A DNA stretch of 64,000 bases from Mustelus asterias (lineage: Eukaryota), in assembly GCF_964213995.1 (NCBI RefSeq), contig NW_027590388.1:248001-312000 (forward strand), read 5' to 3'. Below, one piece after another: positions 10,497 through 52,481 of the stretch; position 1 is the stretch's first letter; each line of letters starts with the position of its first letter. A program made the position numbers and the translations under genes. A model generated the notes under the pieces. The model had not been told where the DNA came from, did no database searches, and saw only the letters and a list, made by a program, of their open reading frames with translations.

Positions 10497-10790
10497 TATT
10501 TATTTATTAGCATCATAAGTAGGCTTACATTCACATTGCAATGAAGTTACTGTGAAAACTCCATAGTCGCCACACTCCGGCACCTGTTCGGGTTTACTGA
10601 GGGAGCATTTAGCATGGCCAATGCACCTAACCAGCACGTCTTTCGGACTGTGGGAGGAAACCAGAGCACCCAGAGGAAACCCACGCAGACACGGAGAGAA
10701 TGTGCAAACTCGACACAGACTCCACAAGGCTGGGAATCGAATCCGGGTCCCTGGCGCTGTGACGCAGCAGTGCTAACCACCGTGCCACCT
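10497..10790 (-). mobile_element. HE1/V-SINE-like SINE, tail type B
   Basis: Reverse complement resembles 7705-7976. Confidence 0.8.
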
Positions 10791-10871
10791 TAATTTTCAC
10801 ATCAAAGCAAAAACAGTGACTTAACTATTTGGGACTTTCAAAGGTGGTGATTTTAACCAACATTCCCCACG

Positions 10872-11455
10872 GTGGTGAATGTTGAGTTTAAAAGTTGGCA
10901 AATTATGTTACAGTCATATAAAATATTGGTTAGGTCACATTTGGAATACTGTGTCCAATTCTGGTCGGCATTCTACCAGAAGGACGTGGTAGCTTTGGAG
11001 GGAGTACAGAAAATGTTTACCAGGATGTTGCATGGTATGGAGGGTATTAGCTATGAGGAAAGATTGAATAAACTGGAAAGATGGAGGCCATGGGGCAACC
11101 TGATAGAAGTTTATAAAATTATGAGGGGCGTAGGTAAGGTAACAGTTGGAAGCTTTCTTCCTGGCAGAAATGACAATCACAAGGGGGCACAATTCAAAGT
11201 AAGGGGGGGGGGGGAAAGTTCAGTGGAGACACGGGGGGAAGTTTTTTTACACAGTGGGTGGTGGGGCCTGGAATGCACTGCCAAGTGAGGTGGTCGAGGC
11301 AGATACATTAGCAACATTTAAAACTTATCTGGATAGAAACATGAACAGACGGTGTATAGAGGGATATAAGCGGTTGGTTTAGATAGGATAACGTGATGGG
11401 CGCAGGCTTGTGGGCCGAAGGGCCTGTTCCTGTGCTGTACTGTTCTTTGTTCTTT
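10872..11455 (+). mobile_element. Decayed CR1 3' fragment
   Basis: LVRSHLEYCVQFWS motif; (gttcttt)n tail. Confidence 0.85.
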
Positions 11456-11459
11456 ATCC

Positions 11460-11800
11460 CCTATCCACACCATAGGGGAACAGTGCGCAGGCGCAGTACC
11501 GAACATGGTAGGGAGCATGCGCGATGTCAGTGATGGCGAAGGGGAGAGAGGATCCTTTTGTCTGATCCGCAGCCGGTAAAGATGTGGAAACGCGCAGGGC
11601 CGATGGAGTCGGCGGGTGAACGGGGAGGGTTTCTAAATACCTGCTGAAAGCCTCAAACCGCGAATACGGACCTGCAGGTTCCGCGTTTGCAGCTCCGGTT
11701 TGTCCTCCCGGGGCGAAGACCCCGGTTACCAGCCGCCATCTTAGTTCAGCGGAGGGCAGAGCGCATGCGCTGGCGTCTTGGTGACGCGCATTGTGACACA
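11460..11800. promoter_or_regulatory. CpG-island candidate bidirectional promoter P2 with minus-facing non-coding exon 1
   Basis: NRF1 gcgcatgcgc and tgcgcaggcgca, YY1 gccgccatctt, tgacg half-site; minus-strand donor cag|gtattt near 11641; lies between divergent ZNF exons. Confidence 0.65.
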
Positions 11801-12306
11801 ACAGAGAGTGGATGGGATTCAGGATTTCTGTTTTTAACTGGGTCCTAGTGCCCGAGGCCACATAAAAGGTTCAGAGACACTGGTCAGAACTTTCTGGTTC
11901 AGTGAGGAAGGTTCCCTTTGGTTTTGTTGATGCTTGGTTGTTGATTTTTGTCTTTCAGTTCGTTTGGACCATATGATTGGAGGGAATAAGAAAGGAAAGA
12001 ATGTTCCATCCAAACTAGAATTGTCTGTTTTGAATTTCTATCCTGTATTTACACTGATAACTTCTGTAAACTCCTTTTACAGGGGATTAGGATGGGAGGA
12101 TTGACAGGTGGGAAACTTAAATCAAACATCACATTGAGATCTGACAGTCATTCGATTCATCAGGACCTGAATATCAATGTGGAAGGAGAAATGTTTATTT
12201 GTTCTGTCTGTGGGAAAAGATTTCAGACATCAGTGTGATTGGAAAAGCACCGAGACACACACACACCCGAGTGAAGGTGTTCCAGTGAACTGACTGTGGA
12301 AAGAGC

Positions 12307-13185
12307 TTGAACCAGTTACACAGCCTGAAAAAACATCACACCATTCACAGCAGGGAGGAACCGTACATGTGCAGTGTGTGTAGTCAACTGATCATCAACC
12401 TGGAGAGACACAAGGATACCGGCACCATGGAGAAACCATGGAAATGTGAGGATTGTGGGAAGGGATTCAAATGGCCATCCCAGCTGGAAATCCATCAGCG
12501 CACTCACACTGGGGAGAGGCCATTCACCTGCTCCATGTGTGGGAAGGGATTCAGAGAGTCATCCAACCTGCTGCAACACCAGCGAGTTCACACTGACCTG
12601 AGACCTTTTAAATGTCCAGACTGCGGGAAGGGCTATAAAAGTTCTGGGGACCTGATGTCCCATCAACGTGTTCACACTGACCAGAGGCCATTTAGGTGCT
12701 CTCACTGCGGGACTGGGTTCAGGAAATCATCTGAATTCACTGTACACCAGCGCACTCACACTGGGGAGAGGCCATTCACCTGCTCCATGTGTGGGAAGGG
12801 GTTCATTAATTCATCCAACCTGTCGAGACACCAGCGCACTCACTCTGATGCAAGAACTTTTAAATGTCCTGACTGTGAGGAGAGCTTTAAAAACAGTGAT
12901 AATCTGCTGAGACATCGACGCACTCACACTGGAGAGAGGCCATTCGCCTGCTCTGAGTGTGGGAAGGGATTCACTCGATCAGCCGCACTGCTGACACACC
13001 GGCGAGTTCACAGCGGAGAGAGGCCGTTCACCTGCTCCGAGTGTGGGAAAAGATTTACTTGTTCATCTCATCTATTGAAACACCAGCGCACTCACACTGT
13101 GGAGAGACCATTCACCTGCTCTGAGTGTGGGAAGGGATTCACTCAATCTTCTAACCTGCTGACACACCAGCAAATTCACAAGTGA
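12307..13185 (+). CDS. C2H2 ZNF Z4A, 9 fingers (probable start accATGg at 12427, MEKPWKC)
   Basis: Intact finger array ending HQQIHK*; acceptor ccttttacag near 12082. Confidence 0.9.
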
Positions 13186-13485
13186 GTGCAGAGGTTGGAG
13201 TTCTCTGTTATTGCTGCTGTTGATCACATTGAGGACTAAATGTGTGGATTAAACCTGAGGTGTGTAAGGAATGTGTCCCAGCTGCTCTCTTCCATGGTTC
13301 AGAGCTCCTCGGCACGGAACAGAGGCTCCTTTACAACTGTGTTTAGAGTCAGGAAGAACAACAGTGAATGCTGGAAACATGCTGTCAAATCAGAGATTGT
13401 TGTAAAACTGGGATCTGTTCCTGAGTGAGAGTGAAACAGCAGGTTTAAGTTTCCTGTCTGGAACTGATTGTGGTAATTATGGTAA

Positions 13486-13862
13486 TCATAGAATCCCTAC
13501 AATGCAGAAGGAGGCCATTTGGCCCATCGAGTCTGTACCGACTCTCTGTCAGAGCATCTTAGAACATAGAACATAGAACATTACAGCGCAGAACAGGCCC
13601 TTCGGCCCACGATGTTGCACCGACCAGTTAAAAAAAAAACTGTGACCCTCCAACCTAAACCAATTTCTTTTCGTCCATGAACCTATCTACGGATCTCTTA
13701 AACGCCCCTTCCCCAGACACACCCCTCCCACGCTAGCCCCATTACCCCACGCATTTACCCCACTAATCCCCCTAACCATAACATCTTGGGACATCTATGG
13801 GGCAATTTAGCATTGGTCAATCTGTCTAACCTGTACATCTTTGCACTGTGGGAGGCAACCAG
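13486..13862 (-). mobile_element. Partial HE1-like SINE interrupted by a CR1 3' tail (13561-13708)
   Basis: Insert matches the reverse complement of ~4186-4345 and is absent from copy B at ~55200. Confidence 0.8.
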
Positions 13863-16589: not shown

Positions 16590-16930
16590 GACACATTTTG
16601 AATGATGGGCTGCTTTTCTCTAGAAAAGAGAAGACTGAAGGGTGACCTGATGGAAGTCTTTAAGGTTATGAAGGGGTTCAATAATCCAATAGGGATTTCA
16701 GTGAGAAACCTCTTTACCAGCGAGTGGTGAGAATGTGGAACTCACTACCACAGCGAGTGGTTGAGGTGAACAGCATGAATACATTGAAGGGGAAGCTGGA
16801 TGAGGGAGGGAGAAAGAAATAGAAGGATATGCTGATGGGGGGAGATGAAGAGGGGTGGGTGGAGGCTCATGTGGAGCATAAATACTGACACAGACCAATT
16901 GAGCCGACTGGCCTGGCCCTGTGCTGTAGA
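16590..16930 (+). mobile_element. Decayed CR1 3' fragment containing the single ancestral 33-bp unit (16718-16761)
   Basis: Remnant RRLKGDLMEVFK and QRVVRMWNSLPQRVVE. Confidence 0.75.
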
Positions 16931-21915: not shown

Positions 21916-22791
21916 TTACTTGTGAACTCGCTGGTGTCTCAGCAGATTGGATGACTGACTGAATCCCTTTCCACACTTGGAACAAGTGAACGGCTTCTCC
22001 CCGGTGTGAATTCGCTGGTGTGTCAGCAGAGTGGATGAGTGAGCAAATCCATTCCCACACTGGGAGCAGGTGAACGGTCTCTCCCCAGTGTGAGTGCGCT
22101 GGTGTACAGTGAGTTGAGATGATTGCTTGAACCCAGTCCCACAGTGAGAGCACCTGAATGGTTTCTCATCAGTGTGAACACGTTGATGGTAGTGCAGATT
22201 TACAGAATTTTTAAAGCATTTCCCACAGTCTGGACATTTAAAAGGTCTCTCATCAGTGTGAATCCGCTGGTGTGTGGAGAGGGTGGCTGACTGAGCAAAT
22301 CTCTTCCCACACTGGGAGCAAGTGAATGGCCTCTCCCCAGTGTGAATTCGCTGGTGTAATGCGAGGTTGGAAGACTGAGCGAATCCCTTCCCACACTGGG
22401 AGCAGGTGAACGGCCTTTCCCCAGTGTGGATTCGCCGATGTTTCAGCAGATGGGATGAGGCAGTGAATCCTTTCCCACACTGGGAGCAGTTGAATGGTCT
22501 CTCGTCAGTGTGAGTTCTCTGGTGTATGTGTAAGCTGTTTGACTGAGTGAATCCCCTCCCACACTGGGAGCAGGTGAATGGTCTCTCCCCACTGTGACTG
22601 CGCCGATGAATCTCCAGCTGGGAAGGGTAATCGAATCCCTTCCCACAGTCCCCACATTTCCACAGCTTCTCCCTGTTGCGACTGCAATTATGTTCCGAAA
22701 GGCTGGATGATTGGTTAAAGTCTTGTCCACACACAGAACACGTGTACAGTTTCTCTTCACTGTGAACGGTGCTATTTCCTTCCATGTTCAA
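21916..22791 (-). CDS. C2H2 ZNF Z6, 9 complete fingers plus 1 degenerate (probable ATG 22785)
   Basis: Intact array ending HQRVHK*; acceptor aatttcacag near 22895. Confidence 0.9.
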
Positions 22792-23489
22792 AACACAATG
22801 ATATTCAGGTTACAATAAATTGGCTAACTCCATCAGGTTTTGATATAATATTTGGTTTCAGTTTCCCAACTGCAAATCCTCTTCTTCTAAAACCCTGTGA
22901 AATTGATTTAAAACAGAAAAAAGGAAGTGAGAGAGAACCCACAAAAACACAAAGGCAGTTTGTGAAATTGAGCTGAATGAATCTGGTCATTTGTGGGGCT
23001 GGCACTCGGAAAAAGTGATCATGAAAACTGCTGGATTGTCATAAAAACCCAGCGGGTTCACTGATATCCTTCAGGGCAGGAAATCTGCCACACGGTCTGG
23101 ACACAAGACTCTGGACACTGAGAGAAGACAGAAAGAAGTAGGAGAAGTCGGGGTGAAGGAGAGGGATTTTGTACATTGACAACTCAATGAGAACTTTGAC
23201 AGAAAGTTTCCCAAACCCTCAACCTCCACCCACCTAGAAGGACCAGGGTAGCAAATAGATGGGAACACCATCACCTTCAAGTTCCTCTCCAACTCACACA
23301 CCATCCTGACTTATCTGACATCCAGTACTAAAAGAACAGAAATTTCTTTCATATAAACACTGGGAAGACAACCCATTGTCTTCAGTGTCAAAGTGAGGGA
23401 GCGAAAGGATGTCAATGTCTTTGAGCGAGAAAGAAAAAGAGACCTGGGCCGAGTCTTGCTCCTAATTCCGATGTTGTCTGTTTCCTTTC

Positions 23490-23930
23490 CAGAGTCTGCA
23501 CCCTCCCTGGATTCACTTCCTTTCCCTTCAGTTGTTGCAAGTCCCCAATTTCCCCCAGAATGAGAAAAGAAACATTGATTTCCTCCCAGATGTTGTCCAG
23601 AAGAGGAAGTTTCAATCTGAACATCGTTGGCCAACTTCCGCATTGAGACGTCACAATGGAACCGAGCCTGAATTAGCCAATAGGAATAAGTCTGTACCGA
23701 TGTGACGTCCTGGAGTTCCAGTGTGCAGGCCCGGGCGTGCAGACATGGGAGCCCCGCCCCCTCCCATTGATTCCCCCGCCCCCTGCCATCTCCTCGAGCC
23801 AAGGTTTCCAGGCAACCGGCTGGCGGCTCCGGCCAGAGCGAGAAGCCGCTCGGTGATCTCCCCCTCCCCCCTCTCTCTCCGGCGGCTGCTCCAAAAAGAG
23901 ATCGAGAGCGACCGCTGGCGCCAGCCGCAC
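23490..23930. promoter_or_regulatory. CpG-rich promoter module P3
   Basis: Homologous to the P1 exon-1 region; acttccgc (ETS), tgacgtc/gacgtca (CRE-like), agccaat, ccccgcccc (GC box), X-box-like gtttccaggcaac. Confidence 0.6.
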
Positions 23931-24167
23931 TGCGCCTGCTCCGGACAGCTCGGCTCAGCAGCGCTCTCTGCGCCTGCTCCGGACAACTCGGCTCAGCAGC
24001 GCTCTCTGCGCCTGCTCCGGACAGCTCGGCTCAGCAGCGCTCTCTGCGCCTGCTCCGGACAGCTCGGCTCAGCAGCGCTCTCTGCGCCTGCTCCGGACAG
24101 CTCGGCTCAGCAGCGCTCTCTGCGCCTGCTCCGGACAACTCGGCTCAGCAGCGCTCTCTGCGCCTGC
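23930..24167. repeat. 38-bp tandem repeat, 6 units plus 10 bp
   Basis: Unit ctgcgcctgctccggacagctcggctcagcagcgctct. Confidence 0.95.
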
Positions 24168-24277: not shown

Positions 24278-24665
24278 CTTCACCACAGACTCAAACTTCA
24301 CCACAGACTCAAACTTCACCACAGACTCAAACTTCACCACAGACTCAAACTTCACCACAGACTCAAACTTCACCACAGACTCAAACTTCACCACAGACTC
24401 AAACTTCACCACAGACTCAAACTTCACCACAGACTCAAACTTCACACACAGACTCAAACTTCACCACAGACTCAAACTTCACACACAGACTCAAACTTCA
24501 CCACAGACTCAAACTTCACACACAGACTCAAACTTCACACACAGACTCAAACTTCACCACAGACTCAAACTTCACACACAGACTCAAACTTCACCACAGA
24601 CTCAAACTTCACACACAGACTCAAACTTCACACAGACTCCAACTTCACCACAGACTCAAACTTCA
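24278..24665. repeat. 18-bp minisatellite with 17- and 19-bp variants, about 21 units
   Basis: Unit cttcaccacagactcaaa. Confidence 0.95.
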
Positions 24666-25117
24666 TCCTCTGGACAACATCTGTGAGGAAAACACTTTCT
24701 TTCTGCCCCTGGGAAATACAGAGACAGAGAAATTCTCTGGAACTGGAATTAGAGTCAAATATACTGAGGGAGAAATGTTTGTGATTTTGTGGAACCTGTT
24801 TTTATTGTCTGAGCTTTTTAAAGTGTAATTTATCCTGTCTATTCAAATACTGTTTCTTAATGCATGATTCAGTGATGTTAATTTTAGATTAATTTTTAAA
24901 GTAAAATTGTTTTAAAATGAAACATTGTCTTTGTTTATTCGATTGGGATTTGTGAGAATTTGTTTATTATAAGGTGACCATGAGGATCGTAACAACATTG
25001 ATATGTCTGGTGTTGTTATATGGTGTGGAGATGCCGGCGTTGGACTGGGGGAAACACAGTAAGAAGTTTAACAACACCAGGTTAAAGTCCAACAGGTTTA
25101 TTTGGTAGCAAAAGCCA

Positions 25118-25154
25118 CACAAGCTTTCGGAGCTCTAAGCCCCTTCTTCAGGTG
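25118..25154 (-). ncRNA. Minimal hammerhead ribozyme motif (PLE-associated)
   Basis: Reverse complement of 25981-26017. Confidence 0.7.
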
Positions 25155-25980
25155 AGTGGGAATTCTGTTCACAAACAGAGCACATAAAGACACAGACTCA
25201 ATTTACATGAATAATGGTTGGAATGCGAATACTTACAACTAATCAAGTCTTTAAGAAACAAAACAATGTGAGTGGAGAGAGCATCAAGACAGGCTAAAGA
25301 GATGTGTATTGTCTCCAGACAAGACAGCCAGTGAAACTCTGCAGGTCCACGCAACTGTGGGAGTTACAAATAGTGTGACATGAACCCAATATCCCGGTTG
25401 AGGCCATCGTCGTGTGTGCAGAACTTGGCTATCAGTTTCTGCTCAGCGACTCTGCGCTGTCGTGTGTCGCGAAGGCCGCCTTGGAGAACGCTTACCCGAA
25501 TATCAGAGGCCGAATGCCCGTGACCGCTGAAGTGCTCCCCAACAGGAAGAGAACAGTCTCGACAATCACCAGGCAAGACTGTTCTCTTCCTGTTGGGGAA
25601 CACTTCAGCGGTCACGGGCATTCGGCCTCTGATATTCGGGTAAGCGTTCTCCAAGGCGGCCTTCGCGACACACGACAGCGCAGAGTCGCTGAGCAGAAAC
25701 TGATAGCCAAGTTCCGCACACACGAGGACAGCCTCAACCGGGATATTGGGTTCATGTCACACGATTTGTAACTCCCACAGTTGCGTGGACCTGCAGAGTT
25801 TCACTGGCTGTCTTGTCTGGAGACAATACACATCTTTTTAGCCTGTCTTGATGCTCTCTCCACTCACATTGTTTTGTTTCTTAAAGACTTGATTAGTTGT
25901 AAGTATTCGCATTCCAACCATTATTCATGTAAATTGAGTCTGTGTCTTTATATGCTCTGTTTGTGAACAGAATTCCCACT

Positions 25981-26017
25981 CACCTGAAGAAGGGGCTTAG
26001 AGCTCCGAAAGCTTGTG
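25981..26017 (+). ncRNA. Minimal hammerhead ribozyme motif (PLE-associated)
   Basis: cac-CUGAAGA-a-ggggc/uuaga/gcucc-GAA-AGCU-U-gug. Confidence 0.75.
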
Positions 26018-26092
26018 TGGCTTTTGCTACCAAATAAACCTGTTGGACTTTAACCTGGTGTTGTTAAACTTCTTACGTTGTTATATGGTGCA

Positions 26093-26296: not shown

Positions 26297-26899
26297 ATGT
26301 GGTGCATAATGGGTATATTATTTATGGATTTGTATTACAGTTGATGTTGTTTAATTCCAGAATAGTATTGTAACTACTCTGTATATTTTCCAGTCAAAGA
26401 GTCATCAGAGCACAAGATAAATCAATTCAGCAGCTTGAGTCCGTGCCAAGTCTCTGTCGGGGAATCCACTCAGTGCCATTTTTCCTCGATATCCCTGTTC
26501 CCCAGTACGTTTCATTCCTTCAAGTGCCCGACCAATTTTATTTTGAAATCACTGGTCGTCTCCACTTCCACCACTCTCATCGTCAGCGAGTTCCAGAACA
26601 TGATTGCTTGCTCCCTAAGTCAAGTTCTTCCGCACCCACCTGTATCTCTAATCATGTAATAGAGTTCTGAATATTGCATACATTTTTAGTTCACTAAATA
26701 TGCAAATTTTTTATATGCTTAGACACGAGCCTGTGTGAAGATTTCAGGAATATGTGTCCTGTACATGAAACAGTCAGCACGGATCTGTCGATTAGGATGA
26801 ATCAGCACCCTCAGGACAATGTCTCTTTCAGGTCCAGCAAAGTGAGAATGGAGGGAGAGTGTTTGGGATGGAGATTTACAAATTTTCAAGAATGAGACG

Positions 26900-27270
26900 A
26901 AAGAATGTTCCACAGAAACGAGAATTGTCTGTTCTGAGTTTTTATCCTGTACTGACAGCAATGATTTTTGTGAATTTCTTTCACAGCCTATTAGAAGGGG
27001 AGAATTTACAGACACAAATCTCTGACGTTAGAATCTGACAGAGTCACACAATTATTCAGGATCTGAATACCATCGGCATTTGAAACTAGAATGGGAAATG
27101 TTTGTCTGTTCCTTCAAAGTGTTTAAACATCAGTGTGACTGGAAAATCACTGAGACACATCCACTCGAGTGAGAGTATTCCAGTGAACTGACTGTGGAAA
27201 GAGCTTTAACCAGTTACACAGTCTGGAAAAGATCGAAGGATTCACAGTGAGGAGAGTGGCCATGTATGTG
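26900..27270 (+). pseudogene. ZNF leader exon remnant (two dead fingers, body lost)
   Basis: Homologous to 11995-12370; acceptor tttcacag near 26987. Confidence 0.65.
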
Positions 27271-27488
27271 TTACCTGTTATTATGTTTGAGATATTAAAA
27301 AGAGTCAACACAATGTGTGAGTTTGACGCAAAGCTGATTTATTTGACTTTTAGTGAGAATATTAGCCCCTAAAGTGGCTGGGGTTTATTACCAGTGTAAA
27401 CGGACCCTAATGAAGATGGTTCAATCCTGAATGTGAAGAACAGCAACATCCAATCACTGTCGTTACTTGTGAACTCACTGGAGTCTCA

Positions 27489-28578
<1,090 letters not shown>

Positions 28579-28640
28579 GTTCCAAATCTGATGATATCAA
28601 AGTTACGATAAATTGAGCCACTCCGTCAGCTTCCCAACGG

Positions 28641-29406
28641 CAAACTCTCCCCTTCTAACACCCTGTAAAACTGATTTAAAACAGGAGACACGGAGTGAGA
28701 AAGAGAGAGCCCACAGAAACACACAGGCAGCTTGTCAAACTCTCCCCTTCTAACACCCTGTAAAACTGATTTAAAACAGGAGACACGGAGTGAGAGAGAG
28801 AGAGCCCACACAAACACACAGGCAGCTTGTCAAACTCTCCCATTCTAACACCCTGTAAAACTGATTTAAAACAGGAGACACGGAGTGAGAGAGAGAGAGC
28901 CCACAGAAACACACAGGCAGCTTGTCAAACTCTCCCCTTCTAACACCCTGTAAAACTGATTGAAAACAGGAGACACAGAGTGAGAGAGAGAGAGCCCACA
29001 CAAACACACAGGCAGCTTGTCAAACTCTCCCATTCTAACACCCTGTAAAACTGATTTAAAACAGGAGACACGGAGTGAGAGAGAGAGAGCCCACAGAAAC
29101 ACACAGGCAGCTTGTCAAACTCTCCCCTTCTAACACCCTGTAAAACTGATTTAAAACAGGAGACACGGAGTGAGAGAGAGAGAGCCCACAGAAACACACA
29201 GGCAGCTTGTCAAACTCTCCCCTTCTAACACCCTGTAAAACTGATTTAAAACAGGAGACACGGAGTGAGAGAGAGAGAGCCCACAGAAACACACAGGTAG
29301 CTTGTCAAACTCTCCCCTTCTAACACCCTGTAAAACTGATTTAAAACAGGAGACTCGGAGTGAGAGAGAGAGAGCCCACACAAACACACAGGCAGCTTGT
29401 CAAACT
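28641..29406. repeat. 95-bp tandem repeat, 8 units plus 6 bp, each carrying the Z7 splice acceptor on the minus strand
   Basis: caaact recurs every 95 bp from 28641 to 29401; minus strand reads ...gttttaaatcagttttacag|ggtgttagaa. Confidence 0.93.
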
Positions 29407-29869
29407 GATCTGAATGAATCTGGGAATTTGTGGGGCCGGCGCTGAGAAACATTGACCATGAAAACTGCCGGATTGTCACAAAAACCCAACTGGCCTCAAT
29501 GGGAGGAGAGAGAAGGAGGTGAAGGAGAGGGATTTTGTATTTCTACAAGACATATTAAGAGAGTAATTAGCAAAGCAAATTTGACCCCGAGCTTCATAAA
29601 GTGTGATATTGGTCTATAAACAGGGAAGTTATTCTGAATATTTATAAAGCTCTGGTCACCGCTCTTCAGGAAGGATATAAAGATCCTTGAGAAGGTGCAG
29701 AGGAGATTTACCAGAATGGTTCCAGTAAAGGAGGTTGAGGGGAGATTTGATTCAGGTACACAAGATTCTGACAGGTTTCGATCAGGTGGATAAAGAAAAT
29801 CTGTTTCCATTTGCTGATCGTACAAGGGCCAGGGGGACAGATTTAAGGTTTTGGGTAAAACCTTGATTG

Positions 29870-32009
29870 AACATAAGAACATAAGAAATAGGAGCAGGAG
29901 TAGGCCATCTCGCCCCTCGAGCCTGCCCCGCCATTCAATAAGATCATGGCTGATCTGACGTGGATCAGTTCCACTTACCCGCCTGATCCCCATAACCCTT
30001 AATTCCCTTACCGATCAGGAATCCATCCATCCGCGCTTTAAACATATTCAGCGAGGTAGCCTCCACCACCTCAGTGGGCAGAGAATTCCAGAGATTCACC
30101 ACCCTCTGGGAGAAGAAGTTCCTCCTCAACTCTGTCTTAAACCGACCCCCCTTTATTTTGAGGCTGTGTCCTCTAGTTTTAACTTCCTTACTAAGTGGAA
30201 AGAATCTCTCCGCCTCCACCCTATCCAGCCCCCGCATTATCTTATAAGTCTCCATAAGATCCCCCCTCATCCTTCTAAACTCCAACGAGTACAAACCCAA
30301 TCTCCTCAGCCTCTCCTCATAATCCAAACCCCTCATCTCCGGTATCAACCTGGTGAACCTTCTCTGCACTCCCTCCAATGCCAATATATCCTTCCTCATA
30401 TAAGGGGACCAATACTGCACACAGTATTCCAGCTGCGGCCTCACCAATGCCCTGTACAGGTGCATCAAGACATCCCTGCTTTTATATTCTATCGTAAGAA
30501 GTTTAACAACACCAGGTTAAAGTCCAACAGGTTTATTTGGTAGCAAAAGCCACACAAGCTTTCGAGGCTCTGAGCCCCTTCTTCAGGTGAGTGGGAATTC
30601 TGTTCACAAACAGAACTTATAAGACACAGACTCAATTTACATGAATAATGGTTGGAATTGCGTCTCATTTTGCGTTTTCCAATCAACCGGCACTACCCCA
30701 GAATGCAACGAGTTTTGATAAATAATCACTAACGCATCCACTATTACCTCTGACATTTCTTTCAATACCTTGGGATGCATTCCATCCGGACCCGGGGACT
30801 TGTCTACCCAGCACTGCCTCTCTGGTAACATTATATTCTATCCCCCTCGCAATATAGGCCAACATCCCATTTGCCTTCTTGATCACCTGTTGTACCTGCA
30901 GACTGGGCTTTTGCGTCTCATGCACAAGCACCCCCAGGTCCCTTTGCACGGTAGCATGTTTTAATTTGTATCCATTGAGATAGTAATCCCATTTGTTATT
31001 ATTTCCTCCAAAGTGTATAACCTCGCATTTATCAACGTTATACTCCATTTGCCATATCCTCGCCCACTCACTCAGCCTGTCCAAATCTCTCTGCAGATCT
31101 TCTCCGTCCTCCACACGATTCACTTTTCCACTTATCTTTGTGTCGTCTGCAAACTTTGTTACCCTACACTCCGTCCCCTCCTCCAGATCATCTATATAAA
31201 TGGTAAATAGTTGCGGCCCGAGTACCGATCCCTGCGGCACGCCACTAGTTACCTTCCTCCAACCGGAAAAACACCCATTTATTCCGACTCTTTGCTTCCT
31301 GTCGGATAGCCAGTCCCCAATCCACTTTAACACACTATCCCCAACTCCGTGTGCCCTAATCGTCTTCAGCAGCCTTTTATGGGGCACCCTATCAAACGCC
31401 TTTTGGAAATCCAAAAACACCGCATCCACCGGTTCTCCTCCATCAACCGCCCTAGTCACATCTTCATAAAAATCCAACATGTTCGTCAAGCACGACTTTC
31501 CCCTCATGAATCCATGCTGCGTCTGATTGATCGAACCATTTCTATCCAGATGCCCTGCTATCTCCTCTTTAATAATGGATTCCAGCATTTTCCCTACTAC
31601 AGACGTTAAGCTGACCGGCCTATAGTTACCCGCCTTTTGTCTCCTTCCTTTTTTAAACAGCGGCGTAACATTAGCCGTTTTCCAATCAACCGGCACTACC
31701 CCAGAATGCAACGAGTTTTGATAAATAATCACTAACGCATCCACTATTACCTCTGACATTTCTTTCAATACCTTGGGATGCATTCCATCCGGACCCGGGG
31801 ACTTGTCTACCCAGCACTGCCTCTCTGGTAACATTAATTGTATTAAGTATTTCTCCTGCTGCCAACCCTCTATCGTTAATATTTGGCAAACTATTTGTGT
31901 CCTCCACCGTGAAGACCGACACAAAAAATTTATTTAAAGACTCAGCCATATCCTCATTTCCCACTATTAACTCCCCCCTCTCGTCCTCCAAGGGTCCAAC
32001 ATTCACTCT
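29870..32009 (-). mobile_element. Young CR1 LINE ORF2 with RT domain, interrupted at 30494-30830
   Basis: NYRPVSLTS, FLDFQKAFD, GVPQGSVLGP, FADDTK motifs; (ttcttatg)n tail. Confidence 0.93.
30494..30657 (-). mobile_element. Penelope-like 3' fragment with hammerhead motif (30553-30589)
   Basis: Near-identical to 25059-25222; TSD ttatattctatc at 30482 and 30831 flanks a composite insert. Confidence 0.82.
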
Positions 32010-32378
32010 ACCATTCACCATACAAGATCCTGAGGGGACTTGACAGGGTGGATGTGGAAAGGACATTTCCTCTTGTGGGAGAATTTTAAACTCGGCACCA
32101 CAAACTAAGGGGTCACCCGTCTAAATTAGAGATGAGGATTTTTTTTCTCAAAGGATTGTGAGACTTTGGAATATTCTTCCTGCAAAGGTGGTTGAGGCAG
32201 AGTCCTGAATATCTTACAGCAGAGGTGGATAGGTTCTTGATAAGCAAGGAGGTGGAAGGTTATCGGGAGTAGGCAGGAACGTGAAGTTGAGATTAAAATG
32301 AGATCAGCCACAATCTTACTGAATGGGAGAGCGGGGCCGAGTGGCCGACTGCTGCTCCTAATTTGTATGTAAACAGTT

Positions 32379-32445
32379 GTTTCTGTCGTGTTATCACGTT
32401 CGCTTCACACGCGAAATGTGCCCGGTTCGAAATCGGGCCGAAACA
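32379..32445 (+). tRNA. tRNA-Val(CAC) pseudogene
   Basis: Matches the vertebrate Val-CAC sequence (ttatcacgttcgc.tcacacgcgaaa...ccggttcgaaa.cgggc.gaaaca) but lacks ~6 nt of the D arm/A box and has stem mismatches. Confidence 0.8.
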
Positions 32446-32537
32446 CTGTTGGATCTTTCTCATTAAACATGAGCAAAGTCTACATGATTGCTCAACATTT
32501 TGCGAATCTCAATGTTACATCAACTCAAATGCTTCTT

Positions 32538-33290
32538 TACAGTAAATGGCAGAACCCTTAAGGGTATTGATAGGCAGAGGGATCTGGGTGTACAGGCACA
32601 CAGGTTACTGAAAGTGGCAACGCAGGTGGAGAAGGTAGTCAAGAAGGCAAATAGCGTGCTTGTCTTCATCGGCTGGGGCATTGAGATTAAAAATTGGCAA
32701 GTAATATTGCAGCTATATAGAACCTTGGTTAGGCCACACTTGGAATATAGTGTTAAATTCTGGTCGCCACACTACCAGAAGGATGTGGAGGCTTTGGAGA
32801 AGGTACAGAAAAGATTTATCAGGATGTTGCCTGGTATGGAGGGCATTAGCTATGAGGAGGGGTTGAAGAAACTTGGTTTATTCTCACTGGAACGACGGAG
32901 GTTGAGGGATGACCCGATACAAGTCTACAAGATTATGAGGGGCATGGATAGAGTGGATAATCAGAAGCTTTTTCCCAGGGTGGAAGAGTCAATTATTAGG
33001 GGTCACAGGTTTAGGTGCGAGGGGCAAGTTTTAAAGGAAATGTACGAGGCAAGTTTTTTTACACAGAGGGTGGTGGGTGCTTGGAACTCACTGCCGGGTG
33101 AGGTAGTGGAAGCAGATCTGATAGTGACTTTTAAGGGGTGTCTTGACAAATACATGAATAGGATGGGAATAGCGGGATATGGTCCCTGGAAGGGTAGGGG
33201 GTTTTAGTTCAGTCAGGCAGCAAGGTGATGCAGGCTTGGAGGGCCAAAGGGCCTGTTCCTGCACTATAATTTTCTTTGTTCTTTGTTTTG
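32538..33290 (+). mobile_element. CR1 3' fragment (older CR1 pieces at 32010-32370 and 33300-33540)
   Basis: LVRPHLEYSVKFWSP and FFTQRVVGAWNSLP; (tctttgt)n tail. Confidence 0.88.
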
Positions 33291-33679
33291 TTCTTTAGTA
33301 CAGGAGATGTGAGGAAGAGTGTTTTTAGACAGTGAGTGCGAATGACCCAAAACTTGCTGCCCATGATTGGGGTGGAAATGGACATGATGAATAATTTCAA
33401 AAGGAAATTGGATAGACATTGGAGGAAAAGAAATCTGCAAAGATATGAGGATAGAGCAGGGGAATGGGACTGGATTGCTCTAGGCAGATGACATGGACTC
33501 AATGGGCCAAATGGCCTCCTCTGTGCTATAATGACTTCCTGTAATCTCACCTTGTGATTTAACCTGGGGAGTTCAAATATCACTCAGGCAAATCTGTGCT
33601 ACACTCCCTCCAAAGCCATTCTGTCCTTCCTAAGGTATGTTGCTCAGAACCAAGCACAGTTCTCCAGGATTTGTGAATC

Positions 33680-33920
33680 TCAGGGCTTTTCCAGTCACAC
33701 TGAGACCTGAAATCTTCTCTCTCAGACAGAATCGACAAACCTGTTACCTTCCACATTCAGAAGCTGCTGATATCCAGGTCCTGATTTTTTCGAGTGACTC
33801 CGTCAGATCACGATGTGATGTTTGATTTGTGTTTCGCGTCTGTCAAGTCTCCACTTCCAGCACCCTGTAAATTTACAGAAACCATCACTGTCTGTCCAGG
33901 ATAGAAATTCACAACATTCT
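33680..33920 (-). pseudogene. ZNF leader exon remnant
   Basis: gtcagatc..gatgtgatgtttga and ccctgtaaa...ccaggatagaaattc are homologous to the other ZNF acceptor regions. Confidence 0.55.
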
Positions 33921-34814
33921 CTACTCCATAATCGCCAACTGTGATTAAATGTATTCCTGGAGGTTTTATCACATCTTTTATGTTGCCCCCATCCTCCAAC
34001 CTCATTCCACACTGCCTTCCTAGGCCAATTGGAAAGCAAAAAGACTCATCACGTTACAGGACGATTGATGGTCAACCAAACAACTTTTATCTTTTGTCAA
34101 TATTTTAATACCCAGTGAAGAGAAATATTCAAACGAAATTACAAAAAAGTATATTTTTTAATGTCCAGACAATTTTCCAGAGATGCAGGTTTGAATCCCA
34201 CAGTTCAAAGATGTGTAGATTAGGTGGATTAGCTATGCTAAATGTACAGGGTTACAGGGATAGGGCTGGATGGTGGGCCAAATGGCTTCCTTCTGCACTG
34301 TGGGGATTCTATGATCCTATGGTACGGTGAATTTTGAATATAATTAAAATCTGGAACTAAAAGCCTACTGATAACCATGAAACCATTGTTCGTTGTTGTA
34401 AAAACCCATCTAGTTCACTAATGTCTTTGAGGGAAGGTAATCTGCTCTCCTTACCTGGTCTGGCTTATATGTGACTCCAGATCCACAGCAATGTGGTTGA
34501 CTCTTAAAACGTCCTCTGAAACTTAGTTCAAGGACAAATAGGAATGGGTGATGAATGCTGGCCCAGCCAGGGACACCCACAGTGTGAATGAATTAGGAAA
34601 AATATCTGCCATCCTTACCCGGTCTGGTCTAACTATATATCAAGAGCAATGTGGTTGACTCTTAAAATGCCCTGAGATGGCCAAGCAAACCACTCAGTTC
34701 AAGGACAATTAGGGATAGACAATAAATGTTGGCCTAGTCAGCAATTTCCACATTCCCTGGACAAATAAAAAATTCCTGGAGACTTCAGTCCAATCCGGGA
34801 GAGTTGGTAACCGG

Positions 34815-35190
34815 TCCAGGCTCATAGCGCATGCGCCCTGCTGCACATTGTTCCTGTAAAGATGGCGGCCGCTAACCCGGGCCTGGAGTCGCTCAGCTCC
34901 GACTCTATTCGGTACCGATTGAAGCGATACCGGGAACATGTTATCTGAATTAAGGCATCCACTAGGTATTTATGAAGCCTCCCAGCCCACTCCGCTGCTT
35001 CTGTCCCTCCCCGGTCACCCAGCGGCTCCATTACTGAACCTCACTCCATTGTTTCTTTCCGGCTCCTCGCAGCTCCAGTCACAGTCCGGACTGCGCATGC
35101 TCCGGTCAGAGCCAGGTCCTGCGCTTGCGCAATAATTGCAGTAATGTGGATAGGGCACAGTCTCACCCGCAGAGAATGTTGGGTAATCAC
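34815..35190. promoter_or_regulatory. CpG promoter module P4, homologue of P2 in the opposite orientation
   Basis: gcgcatgcgc, YY1 aagatggcggc, donor tag|gtattt near 34965, NRF1 pair tgcgcatgctc...tgcgcttgcgc, ZNF143-like gaatgttgggtaa. Confidence 0.65.
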
Positions 35191-35799
35191 CTCACCATTC
35201 AAACCCATATTGTTCAATAGAAAATACGATTTGCGATCTGATTATGATTGGTACCATTGGGCCAAGGTTCAAATGTGTTACTTCAATTCATTTGGCAACT
35301 AAGCAGCATAGGCCTTCCAGCACATTTCTGTCCTGGGTGTGATTGACAACATAACAATCACCTGCATTTAGATGTGAACTCGCTGGGGTGAACAAGTGAT
35401 TTGTGCCCTCTTGGACAGAACAGTTAAACTATCCCTCGCCAATAAGAGGGGTAGTTAAAATGCTTTGAGCTTTTAAAGTTATAGATTGTTAACCACTGAG
35501 GAAATCCCTTTGCGAACGTTAAGTGTTTGAGTGGTCTTCCTCTGGTGTAATTGTGCTGTTCTATCGGTAAATGGGATGACTGAGTCAATTTTCACATTCA
35601 GCTGGGAAATAATTTGTTGATGGTGGGATTTAATCCAAAGGTTTACAGCTTGGACGGGAATCTCAAAAATTGGGCAAAAAATGCTGGTCTTGCCAGCAAT
35701 GCCCACACCCCACGAATTATTATTATTTTTAAACAGTTCCTTTTGAAGTGCTCTCCATCTCCCTGTCTCCTTCTTCCTCAAAGCATCAAACTTAAGGGA

Positions 35800-36692
35800 A
35801 AAGCATATAGCTACACAGAGGTGAGTGACAGGTCAGATGATTGGCTGGAATATAAAGAACAGTAGAGAATTACTAAAAGGTTAATTGGAAGAAAAATATT
35901 AGAGTATGAGAGGAAGTTAGCTGTTAAAGTAAAAATGAATAGCAAGAGTTTCTAGAGGTATTCGAAAAGGAAAAGAGGAATAAGGTGAGTGTTGGCTCTC
36001 TGGAGAATGAGAATGGGGAGTAATAATAGATAATAAATGGCCAATGAAATAAACAAATCTTTCATAGAAATCATAGAAACCCTACAGTACAGAAAGAGGC
36101 CATTCGGCCCATCGAGTCTGCACCGACCACAATCCCACCCAGGCCCTACCCCCATATCCCTGTTTCTGTCTTCACTATAGAAAATACAAAACCAGCCAGT
36201 CCTCGCTGTAAATCAGGAGGTGGAAGGGGGAGAGGAACTAGGAGAAATTACAATGACGTGGGAAGCTGTACTGAGCAAACTGATGGAGCTGCGGCTGACA
36301 AGTCTCTGGGTCACGATGGAATTCATCCTAGCATCTTAAGAAGGTGGTTAATGAGATAGTGACAGTAGATTTGTTGGTGTTAATTTTCCAAAGTTCCCTA
36401 GATTCTGGAGAGGTTCCATCAGACTGGAAAGTAGCAAATATAAGCCCTCCAATTCAAGAACGGATGGTGGCATAAGACAGGAAATCTAGGCCAGTTCGTT
36501 AGACATTTGTTGTGGGGAAGATGTTAGAATCAATCATTAAGAACCTAAGAACATAAGAAATAGGAGCAGGAGTAGGCCATCTAGCCCCTCGAGCCTGCCC
36601 CGCCATTCAATAAGATCATGGCTGATCTGAAGTGGATCAGTTCCACTTACCCCCCTGATCCCTATAACCCCTAATTCCCTTACCGATCAGGA
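35800..36692. mobile_element. Decayed CR1 ORF2 (+) with an inserted SINE tail, followed by a CR1 3' tail (-, 36541-36692)
   Basis: Remnant NSKSF.RY...KR and DKSLGHDGIHP motifs; tail nearly identical to 29870-30022. Confidence 0.65.
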
Positions 36693-36873
36693 ATTCACAC
36701 AGGTGAGAGGCCATTTCAATGTTCTGACTGTAAGAAGAGCTTTAAAACCAGGACAAATTTGAGAAAACACCAGCGAGTCCATTCTGGGGAGAAGCCGTTC
36801 ACCTGCCCTGTGTGTGGCAAAGGATTCAATCGTCCATCCAGCCGTCTGTCACACCAGAGAGTTCACATGTGAT
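36692..36873 (+). pseudogene. ZNF 3' remnant (two fingers, 5' part lost)
   Basis: [58 protein letters not shown], followed by the family 3' UTR. Confidence 0.78.
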
Positions 36874-42174: not shown

Positions 42175-42666
42175 TGGGAGTGTTTGATGGGGTCATATAT
42201 GTATAGAAGAGGATTTATTCTGTATCTAACTCCGTGCTGTATATTTCCTGGGGATATTTGGGGAAGAGAGTGTAAGGGGAGCTTTACTCTGTATCTAACC
42301 TTGTGCTGTATCTGTCCTGGGAGTGTTTGATGGGGACAGTACAACGGGAGCTTTATTCTGCAACCCCGTGCTGTACCTATCTGGGAGTGTTTCATGGGGA
42401 CAGTGTAGCGGGAGCTTTACTCTGTATCTAACCCCATGCTGTACCTGTCCTGTGAGTGTTTGATGGAAACAGTGTAGAGGGAACTTTTCTCTGTATCTTA
42501 CTCCATGCTGTCCTGGGAATGTTTGATGGGGACAGTGTAAAAGGAGCTTTATTCTGTATCTAACCCCATGCTGTACGTGCCCTGGCAGTTTTGATGGAGT
42601 CAGTGTAGAAAGGGATTTAATCAGTATCTAACCCCGTGCTGTATGTTTCCTGGGATTGTTTGATGG
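42175..42666. repeat. Degenerate ~69-bp tandem repeat, about 7 units
   Basis: Consensus ctgggagtgtttgatggggacagtgtagagggagctttactctgtatctaaccccgtgctgtacctgtc. Confidence 0.88.
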
Positions 42667-43609: not shown

Positions 43610-44908
43610 TCACTTATGAATTCGCTGATGCGTCAGCAGGTTGGATTTCCGAGTAAATCCCTTCCCACACTTGGAGCAGGTGAATGGTTTCTCCCCAGTG
43701 TGAACTCGCTGGTGTTCAATTAGTATCGACGATCGACTGAACCCAGTCCCACATTGAGAGCACATGAATGGCCTCTCGTCAGTGTGAACACGTTGGTGGG
43801 ACCTCAGATCTCCAGATCGTTTGTAGCACTTCCCACAGTCTGGGCATTTGAAAGGTCTCTCCTCAGTGTGAACCCGCTGGTGAGCCATGAGTTGGGAGGA
43901 CTGAGTGAATCCCTTCCCACAATTGGAGCAGGTGAACGGTCTCTCCCCAGTGTGAATTCGCTGGTGTTCAGTGAGATGGGATGATTGCCTGAATCCAATT
44001 GCACAGTGAGAGCACCTGAACGGTCTCTTGTCAGTGTGAACATGCTGATGGGATTTCAGTTCTCCAGAACTTTTATAGTAATTCCCACAGTCTGGGCACT
44101 TGAAAGGTCTCTCTCCAGAGTGAACCCGCTGGTGCACCATGAGTTGGGATGACCGACTAAATCCCTTCCCACACTCCGTGCAGGTGAATGGCCTTTTCCC
44201 AGTGTGAATTCGCTGGTGTACAGTGAGTTGAGATGATTGCCTGAACCCAGTCCCGCAGTGAGAGCACCTGAACGGTCTCTCCTCAGTGTGAACGCGTTGG
44301 TGGTACGTCAGTTCCCAGGAGCTTTTATAGCCCTTTCCACATTCTGAACAGTAAAAAGGTCGTTCCTCAGTGTGAACTTGCTGATGGCGTGTCAGTTCCC
44401 GGGAACTTTTAAAGCACTTCCCACATGCTGGACATTTAAAAGGTCTCTTGTCAGTGTGAACTCGCTGGTGTGATAGCAGGTTGCTTGTGTGAATGAATCC
44501 CTTCCCACACTGGGAGCAGGTGAATGGCCTCTCCCCGGTGTGAACTCTCTGGTGTACCAGCAGATTGGATGACTGAGTGAATCCCTTCCCACATTTGGAG
44601 CAGGTGAATGGTCTCTCTCCAGTGTGAACTTGCCGGTGTCTCAGCAGGTTGAACGACTGAGTGAATCCTTTCCCACACACAGAGCAGGTGAACGGCCTCT
44701 CCCCAGCATGAACTCGCTGGTGAATTTCCAGTTCAGATGGGGAATAGAATCCTTCCTCGCAGTCCCCACATTTCAACGGCTTCTCTTCAGTGTGACGGCA
44801 CTTGTGGTTCGTGGGGTCAGATGATTCATACACAGAACACGCGTACAGATTCTCCCCACTGCAATCGATGCTTTTTTCTTCCATGTTCAAAATCCAATCA
44901 TGATACAA
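43610..44908 (-). CDS. C2H2 ZNF Z2B, 14 fingers (probable ATG 44884)
   Basis: Intact ORF; paralogue of the frameshifted Z2A. Confidence 0.92.
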
Positions 44909-45144
44909 TGGTCACAATAAATTGGGCGACTCCATCAGATCCTGATGTGATGTTCGCTTTGTGTTTCCCGACTGAAAATCCTCCTCTTCTAAAACCCTGT
45001 GAAACTGATTTAAATGGAAAAAAGGCAGTGAGCGCGAACCCACAGAAACACAAAGGCAGGTTGTGAAATTGAGCTGAATGAATCTGGTCATTTGTGGGGC
45101 CGGCACTGGGAAAAAGTTACCATGGAAACTGCCGGATTGTCATT

Positions 45145-45415
45145 GGGCGGCACGGGGGCACAGTGATCAGCTCTGCTGCCTCACAGCGCCAGGGACCCGT
45201 GTTTGATTCCCAGCTTGGGTCACTGTCTGTGTGGAGTTTGTACGCTCTCCCTGTGTCTGCGTGGGTTTCCTCCGGGTGCTCTGGTTTCCTCCCACAGTCC
45301 GAAAGACATGCTGCTTAGTTGCATTGACCCGAACAGGTGCTGGATTGTGGCAACTAGGGGAATTTCACAGCAACTTCATTGATGTGTTAATGTAAGCCTA
45401 CTTGTGACTAATAAA
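45145..45415 (+). mobile_element. V-SINE-like SINE type B (paralogue of 7705)
   Basis: Same position and sequence as in copy A. Confidence 0.8.
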
Positions 45416-46225
45416 TTTTTAACTTTAAAAAAACCCACCTGATTCACTAATGTCCTTCAGGGAAGGAAACCTGCTCCCTGGTCAGGGGCGACACAAGACT
45501 CTGGACAATCTGGGAGAAGAGATCGAGGGGGAAGAGGCAGAGAGACAGAAGTAGGAGAGGGTGAGACAGAATTGGGCAGCACAGGAAAAAAGGAATTTCA
45601 AATATTTCAAACTCCCACAACCTCCACCACCTCGATGGAGCAATGAAGCAGGCGTATGGGAACACCATCATCTCCAAGTTCCTTTTCAACTCACACACCA
45701 TCCTGACGTGTCTGACATCCAGTACTGGATGAACAGAAACTTCCTCCAATTGAATATTAAGAACAAAGCCGTTGTCTTCAGTCCTCACAACAGACTCCAC
45801 TCTCTCTCCCTGGCAACTGTCTGAGGCTGAACCAGACTTCTCACAACCTCAGTGTCCTGTCTCACCCCAAACTGAGCTTCCAGCCACATATCCTCACCAT
45901 CACCCAGAATGTCTATTTCCACCTCAGTAACATCGCCCGAGTCTCAAATCATCTTGTTCAGAAACTCTCATCCATTCCTTTGTTACCTCTGGACTTAACT
46001 ATCCCAGAGCACTCTTTGCTGGCCTCCCACATTCAGCCTCCCTGCAATCCTGAGGTCATCCAAAACTCTGCTGTCTGTGTAATTATTCAAGACTTGTTCA
46101 CCCATCACCCCTGTGCTCACTGACCTATAAAGGTTCCTGTTTAAGAACCACTAACATTTTAAAACTCCCGTTCTTGTTTCCAAATTTCTCCATGACTGCG
46201 ACCACTCCTCTCTCTGTAATATCCT

Positions 46226-46730
46226 TCAGTCACACAATTCTCCATCATCGATGCTCTCCCCTAATTCCAGCCTCTCTTCAGTGTGAACATATTGATGGGA
46301 TGTCAGTTCCTGGGAACTTTTATAGCACTTCCCACAGTCTGGGCATTTAAAAGGTCTCTCGTCAGTGTGAACTCGCTGTTGTGTCATGGGTAATGATGAC
46401 TGAGTGAATTGTTTCCCACATACAGAGCAGGTGAATGGCCTCTCCCCCAGGTGAAGCTGCTGGTGTTTCAACAGGTTGTTTGACTTATTGAATCACAACC
46501 CACACTCAGAGCCAGTTCACAGCCTCTCCCTTGTGTGACTGCGTTGCTGAGTTTCCAGTTTAGACGGTAACTGAAGGCCTTCTCACAGTCCTCATGTTTC
46601 CACAGTTTTCCCCGGTGTGATAGTGTCTCGACAGGTTAGATGATTGGTTGAAGCCTCATCCACACATAGAACATATGTACGGTTTTTCCCCACTGTGAAC
46701 AGTGCTTTTTCCTTCAATGTTCAAAATCCC
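46226..46730 (-). pseudogene. ZNF pseudogene Z3B
   Basis: Degenerate fingers and the same truncation as Z3A. Confidence 0.8.
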
Positions 46731-47453
46731 ATAATTTGGACAACTCCATCTGATGTGAATGTTTGGTTTGAGTTTCCTGACTACATATCCTCCTCTTTCA
46801 ATACCTCATGAAATTAATTTAAAACAGAGAAAAGGGAGTGAGAGAGTGCCCACAAAAACACAAAGGCAGGTTATGAAATTGAGCTGAATGAATCTGGTAA
46901 TCTGTGGGGTCGACACGAGGAAAAAGTGACCATGGAAGCTCCTGGATTGTCACAAAAACCCAACTGGTTCACTAATGTCCTTTAGGGAAGGGAACTTACC
47001 ACCCAGTCTGGGCCTACACAAGACTCTGGCCTCTATAGGAGGGGAGAGAGGTGAAAGAGGCAGGAACAAAGGAGGTGATTTTCTACTTTGAATTCTAAAA
47101 CTTTGACAAAATTCTCCAAACCTTCAACTTCCACACCAAGGAGGACCAGGTGTATGCGAACAGCATAATCTCCAAATTCCCCTCCAACTCGCACACTGTC
47201 CTGCCCTGTCCGATATCCAGTACTGAATGAACAGCAATGTGCTCCATTTAACTACTGGGAAGAAGAAAACCATTGTTTCTCTTCAGTCCCCGCTACAAAC
47301 TCCACTCCCAAACTACTGACTCCATCCTTTTCCCTGACAACTGTCTGAGACTGAACCGGACTGTTCCCAGCCTCAATAACAGCTTTCACTCTAAACTGAG
47401 CTCCTGACCTCATATCTGAATAATCACCAAGACTGCCAATTTCCATCTCAGTA

Positions 47454-48165
47454 CAAAGATCAAAGAACAAAGAACATTACAACACAGGGACAGGCCCTTC
47501 GGCCCTCCAAGCCTGCACCAACCATGCTGCCCGACTGAACTAAAACCCCCTACCCTTCTGGGGACCATATCCCTCTATTCCCATCCTATTCATGTACTTG
47601 TCAAGATGCCCCTTAAAAGTCACTACCGCTTCCACTACCTCCCCTGGCAACGAGTTCCAGGCACCCACTACTCTCTGTGTAAAAAGTCTGCCTCGTACAT
47701 CTCCCTTAAACCTCGCCCCTCGCACCTTAAACCTATGCCCCCCAGTAATTGACTCTTCCATCCTGGGAAAAAGCTTCTGACTATCCACTCTGTCCATGCT
47801 TCTCATAATCTTGTGGACTTCTATCAGGTCTCCCCTCAACCTCCTTCGCTCCAGTGAGAACAAACCAAGTTTCTCCAACCTCTCCTCATAGCTAATGCCC
47901 TCCATACCAGGCAACATCCTGGTAAATCTTTTCTGTACCCTCTCCAAAGCCTCCACATCCTTCTGGTAATGTGGCGATCAGAATTGAACACTATATTCCA
48001 AGTGCGGCCTAACTAAGGTTCTATAAAGCATCAACATGAGTTGCCAATTTTTAAACTCAATGCCCCGGCCGATGAAGGCAAGCATGTCATATGCCTTCTT
48101 GACTAGTTTCTCCACCTCCATTGCCACTTTCAGAGACCTGTGTACCTGATGTGACCTGTGTACCT
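47454..48165 (-). mobile_element. CR1 3' fragment specific to copy B
   Basis: ORF 47540-47956; absent from copy A at ~10014. Confidence 0.88.
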
Positions 48166-48295
48166 GACCTGAGTAACATCACCTGACTCTGTCCTTAGAC
48201 ATGATGTGTAGTTGCCGGCGTTGGACTGGGGTGAACACAGTAAGAAGTCTCACAACACCAGGTTAAAGTCCAACAGGTTTATTTGGTAGCAAATA

Positions 48296-51811: not shown

Positions 51812-51893
51812 TTAATGTTCACATCAAAGCAAAAACAGTGACTTAACTATTTGGGACTTTCAAAGGTGGTGATTTTAACCAACATCCCCCACG

Positions 51894-52478: not shown

Positions 52479-52481
52479 TCC

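Follow-up and report, generated by a model that had tools for sequence, protein, structure and literature searches.

The tandem array at 28641-29406 in the window (the whole 64,000-nucleotide stretch of Mustelus asterias DNA that was analysed) is a minisatellite in which every unit ends, on the minus strand, with the start of a C2H2 zinc-finger (ZNF) exon and probably carries a real splice acceptor of that gene family. We give an even chance to the reading, built on analogy with human precedents, that it is a young and near-neutral minisatellite from which one dominant, exon-adjacent acceptor would yield near-normal mRNA of the adjoining gene, Z7, and not an evolved switch. By the same analogy, it would be of the F7 IVS7 and CBS 844ins68 type in an acceptor-side, multi-copy form, and it probably amounts to an accident confined to one gene and one lineage, in a zinc-finger cluster with fast turnover.

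Tandem Repeats Finder describes the array with a period of 95, 8.1 copies, 97% matches and 0% indels. It consists of eight units, every one exactly 95 bp, plus a 6-bp CAAACT overhang, and this short direct repeat thereby stands at both array boundaries (28641..28646 on the left, exon side, and 29401..29406 on the right, intron side); a preliminary description of this DNA had proposed both the eight 95-bp units and their amplification between CAAACT microhomologies, and was correct as to the units and the hexamers. Head-to-tail units of 10-100 bp are characteristic of minisatellites, and 8 x 95 bp is within that range. On the minus strand, each unit comprises 73 nt of intron end, with a branch-point motif and ACAG, followed by 22 nt of exon start. 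The eight units carry ten substitutions spread over seven columns. Assemblies can get the number of copies in a tandem array wrong, and this array is seen in one sequence only; an assembly artefact is nevertheless very improbable, as the units differ by substitutions only, in a shared dimer pattern, and show no indels even in a dinucleotide run. As the array is known from one haplotype, the label "VNTR" would be an assumption.

The 3' splice site of unit 1, which adjoins the full exon, lies at 28663..28699 on the minus strand, its role as an acceptor being assigned from paralogs and database gene models. A CTCAC branch motif (A at 28696) is followed by TCAG ending at 28671 and ACAG ending at 28663, and the first exon base is 28662. 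Seven more copies are present as sequence features of units 2-8 (28758..29364, minus strand), with first exon bases at 28757, 28852, 28947, 29042, 29137, 29232, and 29327, the series 28662+95n. Branch motif and AG are retained in 8/8 units and, with acceptor strength judged from consensus features only, all eight copies look like usable acceptors. Each unit also has a second AG (TCAG) 8 nt upstream, such that the array may hold 16 candidate acceptor sites, and unit 8 has a third AG at -28, between branch motif and acceptor. The pyrimidine tract pointed out in the preliminary description is visible in the unit, although the pyrimidine fraction at -23 to -4 is only modest (0.65-0.70). The AG is directly followed by GGGG or GGG in every unit. 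Each unit contains 11 GT dinucleotides, none of which matches the donor consensus (judged by eye), and the junction is AG|GG rather than AG|GT. Therefore, the array is not expected to provide a new intron, a cassette exon, or a recursive site, and interpretation as a cassette-exon array or as recursive splice sites was rejected. The array shares duplication across a splice-like motif with intron gains in which an AG|GT site is duplicated in tandem, as these appear in the accessible part of the source (PMC3265369), but differs from them in this junction and in having no donor.

The window contains a cluster of C2H2 zinc-finger genes amid retroelement pieces, and the junction in the array recurs among them. 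An 18-mer across the junction has eight exact matches in the array and seven matches with 2-3 mismatches elsewhere in the window (7546, 22885, 44987, 1705, 12075, 33855, and 53096), whereas shuffled sequence gives a mean of 0.04. The matches at 7546, 22885, and 44987 agree with an earlier proposal that the unit is the intron/exon boundary of the family, found singly near 7556, 22895, and 44996. The family junction has 13 copies in the window: eight before long finger arrays with an ATG (including that of Z7), one before an interrupted gene, and four in remnants. Only the Z7 copy is amplified, the 12 others each being carried once. CAG is present at 11 of the 13 junctions, a count that is partly circular because the junctions were chosen by motif likeness, and the two without CAG precede one-finger remnants. 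A YTNAY branch motif is located at -31 to -34 in 12/13 junctions, across two otherwise different intron types. Support from other sharks comes from predicted gene models rather than cDNAs: in five predicted shark proteins, the peptide of the family exon start begins no more than three codons from the AG in 6/6 instances, four of which switch cleanly to unrelated upstream sequence, while another would agree with read-through or with use of the AG located 8 nt farther upstream, and the last is ambiguous. The exon-start peptide was found in two proteins among the 150 representatives listed, and none of 52 candidates was a longer protein bearing it.

At all family junctions (e.g. 7555, 22894, and 44996), the portion of the ZNF exon that forms 5' UTR is coding sequence that has decayed; shark gene models translate it in either of two frames, and a broken finger persists there in paralogs of the second intron type. 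Upstream of the ZNF exon, two remnant paralogs (~9540-9590 and 46975-47025, minus strand) have a 33-nt segment with an acceptor and a GTAAGT donor. This micro-exon is deleted or altered in intact paralogs; it was considered as an upstream exon of Z7 and dropped, being deleted there.

The array units have a mean pairwise difference of 2.3%, compared to ~80% identity with paralogs, and the array is therefore young. At the sites of the two CAAACT copies, paralogs have AATTTC and GATTTG-like sequences, and the exact hexamer is absent. Three other locus-specific arrays in the window have short-repeat overhangs of 10-11 bp, and the array of 33 bp x 67 has a paralog near 16714-16760 that is unamplified and in which the copies of an 11-bp direct repeat are still 33 bp apart. 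Together with these overhangs, the 6-bp overhang of the Z7 array fits an origin by microhomology-mediated tandem duplication, which Haber and Louis reportedly described in 1998 as a source of minisatellites. In the portion of a study on microhomology-mediated duplications that is available (PMC13167724), most evolve neutrally; the Z7 array, bounded by a short direct repeat, is like them in essentials, but its unit contains a functional signal. Within the array, G76C is found in units 2 and 4 and then C12A in units 3 and 5. Because units 2-3 and 4-5 share this variant pair, the simplest account is that the upstream ATG (uATG) of the array had a single origin and was then copied in one step within a 190-bp dimer. 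None of the seven variable columns falls on the eight core acceptor positions (P=0.53, a comparison of low power with seven columns), and the array acceptors show no sign of selection.

The position of the acceptor determines what precedes the Z7 start codon. After unit 1, the ZNF exon continues for 84 nt (28579..28662, minus strand), a segment with a ~26-nt deletion relative to paralogs and no ATG. As each of its three frames is closed by a stop ahead of the main ATG (28578), this segment is 5' UTR, and an N-terminal extension of Z7 via the array is ruled out by the in-frame stops. Choosing unit k would add 95(k-1) nt to the 5' UTR. C>A variants at 28842 and 29032 produce minus-strand ATGs at 28843 and 29033, both of which open upstream open reading frames (uORFs) of 55 codons. 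That of unit 3 (28676..28843, minus strand) would be included only if unit 3 or higher were used, and it terminates 97 nt ahead of the main ATG; that of unit 5 (28866..29033, minus strand) would require unit 5 or higher and terminates 287 nt ahead of the main ATG. The uORFs start within AGAATGG, a strong context by virtue of its A at -3 and its G at +4. Acceptors of units 1-2 would give no uORF, those of units 3-4 one, and those of units 5-8 two. At the level of sequence, these observations bear out what the preliminary description had predicted, namely upstream ATGs at 28843 and 29033 and acceptor choices that shift the 5' UTR by 95-nt steps with or without uORFs. Its suggestion of nonsense-mediated decay (NMD) is weakened. 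Junction-dependent NMD acts on stops more than ~50 nt upstream of an exon junction, and the uORF stops (28676 and 28866) are inside an exon that runs to AATAAA hexamers, with no downstream exon junction in sight. As this is apparently the last exon, junction-dependent NMD is not expected, a 3' UTR intron being possible. Upstream ATGs are also common in the family: each of the 7/7 other intact paralogs has 1-5 between acceptor and main ATG, and in the paralog at 12083 one is at the same +9 position as those of the Z7 array.

Human minisatellites that repeat a donor are described in the accessible part of one report (PMC1557585) for F7 IVS7 (37 bp, 5-9 copies), CBS intron 13 (31 bp), IFI6/6-16 intron 2, LMNB2 (100 bp), and PDGF intron 4 (81 bp). 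The Z7 array is similar to these in having a splice site in every unit, in unit sizes and copy numbers, and in the near-identity of the extra sites to the original one. According to the same part of that report, only the exon-adjacent donor is used in F7, a choice that is unchanged from 1 to 12 units and was explained by 5'-to-3' scanning; LMNB2 and PDGF use the authentic donor only, and IFI6 and CBS intron 13 use two extra donors. In all five, however, the first transcribed site is the original, whereas the Z7 array repeats an acceptor with its branch motif and the first transcribed copy is the farthest from the exon. Furthermore, choice alters the reading frame in the human arrays and the 5' UTR in Z7, and the polymorphism demonstrated for the former contrasts with the single haplotype of the latter. 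On the acceptor side, CBS 844ins68 is a duplicated intron/exon junction at which the distal site is used (PMC2630376), with G runs between the two sites promoting distal use (PMC1802585), as stated in the available portions of the two reports. Like the Z7 array, it has a tandem duplicate of 3' splice site and exon start, with G runs between copies; unlike it, CBS 844ins68 has two copies, in a coding exon, and a linked point mutation in the first copy, compared to eight copies before a start codon.

In the near-neutral reading, a tandem duplication between two 6-bp microhomologies would by accident have taken in the complete 3' splice site of the last Z7 exon, and slippage or unequal exchange would have extended it to eight units. 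To judge from the human precedents, one acceptor would be dominant, most likely that of unit 1, which is the only unit with a complete exon after it. The other seven would be spliced out within the intron as silent or minor pseudo-sites, the Z7 mRNA and protein would be near normal, and the uATGs would be passengers. Single-site use in F7, LMNB2, and PDGF and distal use with G runs in CBS 844ins68 favour this outcome. Several points weigh against it: two extra sites are used in IFI6 and CBS intron 13, all precedents are human, and the chance of an array covering the full acceptor stretch is low (~0.017 that one of the window's five arrays would cover branch point to AG, or 0.046 for the AG alone, both figures being post hoc and from one window). 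In addition, 5'-to-3' scanning, if transferred to acceptors, predicts the use of unit 8 and not of unit 1.

If acceptors were indeed taken as they are transcribed, unit 8 or 7 would be used, and the array would become 5' UTR (up to 749 nt) and expose the two strong-context uORFs together with stacked hairpins, amounting to a damaging mutation that lowers the amount of Z7 protein. Such an outcome is consistent with the oriented scanning shown for F7 donors in the part of the report that is available (PMC1557585), with the branch motif and AG kept in all eight units, with the stable predicted fold of three units (below), and with the frequency of decay in the cluster, which has four remnants, one frameshifted paralog, and one interrupted paralog. 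It is unlikely, however, given that CBS 844ins68, the one duplicated acceptor found described, uses the distal site in the accessible parts of its two reports (PMC2630376, PMC1802585). Moreover, the upstream units have just 22 nt of exon before intron sequence follows, unit 8 has its extra AG between branch motif and acceptor, and the uATGs in 7/7 intact paralogs indicate that uORFs need not silence.

The preliminary description had instead regarded the array as a copy-number control, in which several acceptors of a polymorphic array are used and unit number or type tunes Z7 translation or mRNA level. Near-identical sites make mixed use possible, the resulting isoforms would differ by 0, 1, or 2 uORFs, and published work, in the parts available, describes both the use of two extra sites in the IFI6 and CBS intron 13 arrays (PMC1557585) and the commonness in humans of tandem repeats linked to splicing variation (PMC10078293). 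Nevertheless, in published splice-site minisatellites, use is limited to a single site or to the two or three closest ones, and site choice in F7 is constant irrespective of unit number in the part of that report available (PMC1557585). The lack of a selection signal, the single origin of the uATG, the uATGs in all seven paralogs, uORF stops in an apparent last exon with no downstream junction complex, and the unamplified state of all 12 other family junctions likewise leave the proposed mechanism unsupported. Tuning of this kind is thus rather doubtful, and the stricter version, in which the array is polymorphic, several acceptors are used, and unit number and the position of ATG units together set the Z7 5' UTR length and uORF load, is more doubtful still. 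If true, an acceptor-side repeat would be a heritable dial on the translation of a transcription factor, and shark ZNF clusters, being rich in minisatellites and near-identical junctions, may make such dials repeatedly.

RNA folding does not distinguish among the acceptors. Each array unit is predicted to fold as a hairpin that pairs a CU run and the branch motif with the exon start. Fold z-scores, which are inflated by blockwise pyrimidine and purine content, are -1.8 to -3.7 for this hairpin as RNA in 8/8 units, compared to -1.7 to +0.8 in 11/11 paralogous junctions, and three units together fold at -103 kcal/mol (z -4.9). Given the values for the paralogous junctions, the hairpin was rejected as a conserved family feature; a DNA hairpin as the cause of duplication was also rejected, as the DNA fold is not significant (z -1.7 to +0.2). 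The predicted hairpin covers the branch point and AG of unit 1 as much as those of other units and so does not favour unit 1; it could weaken every array acceptor, yet it selects none among them. No Rfam match was found at E<=0.1 in 26500-36000.

Whether any acceptor matters depends on the state of Z7. Its coding sequence (27523..28578, minus strand) encodes 351 aa with 11 intact C2H2 fingers, all of which retain their Cys/His ligands, and no KRAB or other domain was found. A 10-bp deletion near 27627 has replaced the last two fingers by a short out-of-frame tail. Relative to one paralog, this dead tail of 165 nt has two further frameshifts and one 6-bp insertion, in comparison to no frameshift in the 951 nt upstream; the chance of indels being confined to the tail is ~0.02 by hand arithmetic when the two frameshifts alone are counted and 0.003 when all three indels are. 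Intact fingers beside a dead tail that gathers indels fit a gene that stayed translated, and this suggests that selection on Z7 continued after truncation, not necessarily after array formation. The main ATG context is intact, as are two AATAAA hexamers that are candidate poly(A) signals (27384-27389 and 27338-27343, minus strand), and the ZNF exon looks terminal. The closest named relatives of Z7 residues 1-60 are from Scyliorhinus torazame (72%) and Cetorhinus maximus (68%), the only two matches, and residues 225-351 have 126 matches, the best at 65% among the 120 listed; no ortholog of Z7 is among the matches to residues 1-60 or those listed for residues 225-351. The exact Z7 protein is absent from the protein collection searched, but because two intact paralogs are absent as well, this says little.

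Upstream of the array, single-copy intron sequence common to paralogs (29407..29540, minus strand) is followed by retroelement pieces (29869..31933, minus strand) with a reverse-transcriptase open reading frame at 30686-31933. These are 98.5-99.5% identical to 48640-49936, and the insertion is therefore young. A further exon of the family has left a decayed start, with a donor-like GAAG|GTAACA (33748..33864, minus strand), that is a possible upstream exon of Z7, and a basking-shark gene model joins the same two exon types. The only candidate promoter seen for Z7 is a CpG-rich segment with a donor-like GGA|GTGAGG at 35044 (34820..35150, minus strand), which has homology to sequence preceding the paralog at 12083; it belongs to a decayed neighbour and is 5.4 kb from the array.

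These surroundings raise the alternative that Z7 is no longer transcribed or spliced and that the array is without consequence. Sequence homologous to the regions upstream of type-A paralogs extends only to near 29540, where it gives way to retroelement pieces, the sole candidate promoter is that of the decayed neighbour, the tail of the open reading frame is frameshifted, neither the exact protein nor a close ortholog was found (the latter among the matches listed), and the predicted hairpin, specific to Z7, would hide all acceptors. A dead locus is also unlikely, however: the finger ligands, the frame of the 951 nt, the start context, and the poly(A) hexamers are all preserved, intact paralogs are likewise missing from the protein collection, and the basking-shark model offers a parallel for the proposed exon joining.

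The homologous CpG segments at 34820-35150 and 11457-11770 contain GCGCATGCGC and AAGATGGCGG motifs, which we take to be NRF1 and YY1 motifs, arranged as if bidirectional. A plus-strand ZNF fragment is located nearby, at 36690-36870.

The acceptor array mirrors the donor arrays that helped to test 5' splice-site choice. Because the original acceptor is here not the first to be transcribed, first-come scanning and exon definition make opposing predictions for the array, and it can separate first-site-transcribed from full-exon-adjacent models where donor arrays cannot. In this exon, the two models give 5' UTRs of 84 and 749 nt with 0 and 2 uORFs, respectively, and the unit variants, with A12, C76, G37, T88, and T50 on the plus strand, are natural barcodes. 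Neither a multi-copy acceptor minisatellite nor minisatellites of shark ZNF clusters were found in the literature searched, the coverage of which is incomplete and excludes most subscription journals. A human VNTR study from 2023 is said to have included splice-site repeats, and an earlier precedent for a multi-copy acceptor repeat is therefore likely.

Other repeats and duplications were observed in the window. A 38-bp x 6.3 array (23930-24167) lies inside the CpG island that precedes the ZNF gene at 21916-22809 and multiplies a GCGC-type motif, presumably NRF1-like, that recurs in other CpG segments; here, as in Z7, a minisatellite has amplified what is likely a functional element. Three reading frames of 756-819 aa run open through the 33-bp x 67 array (59174-61395), in all likelihood by coincidence. 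Two more minisatellites are present at 24278-24665 and 42214-42666 (18 bp x 21 and 69 bp x 6.7). A near-perfect palindrome of ~1 kb (25053-26082), 96.9% identical to its own reverse complement, consists of two repeat-end copies placed head to head. Finally, 6430-13560 and 43869-55201 form a segmental duplication (96-97%) with three ZNF loci, the fates of which differ: one copy has a frameshift near 6630, and in the other, acceptor and finger array are separated by a piece inserted near 53500-54100.
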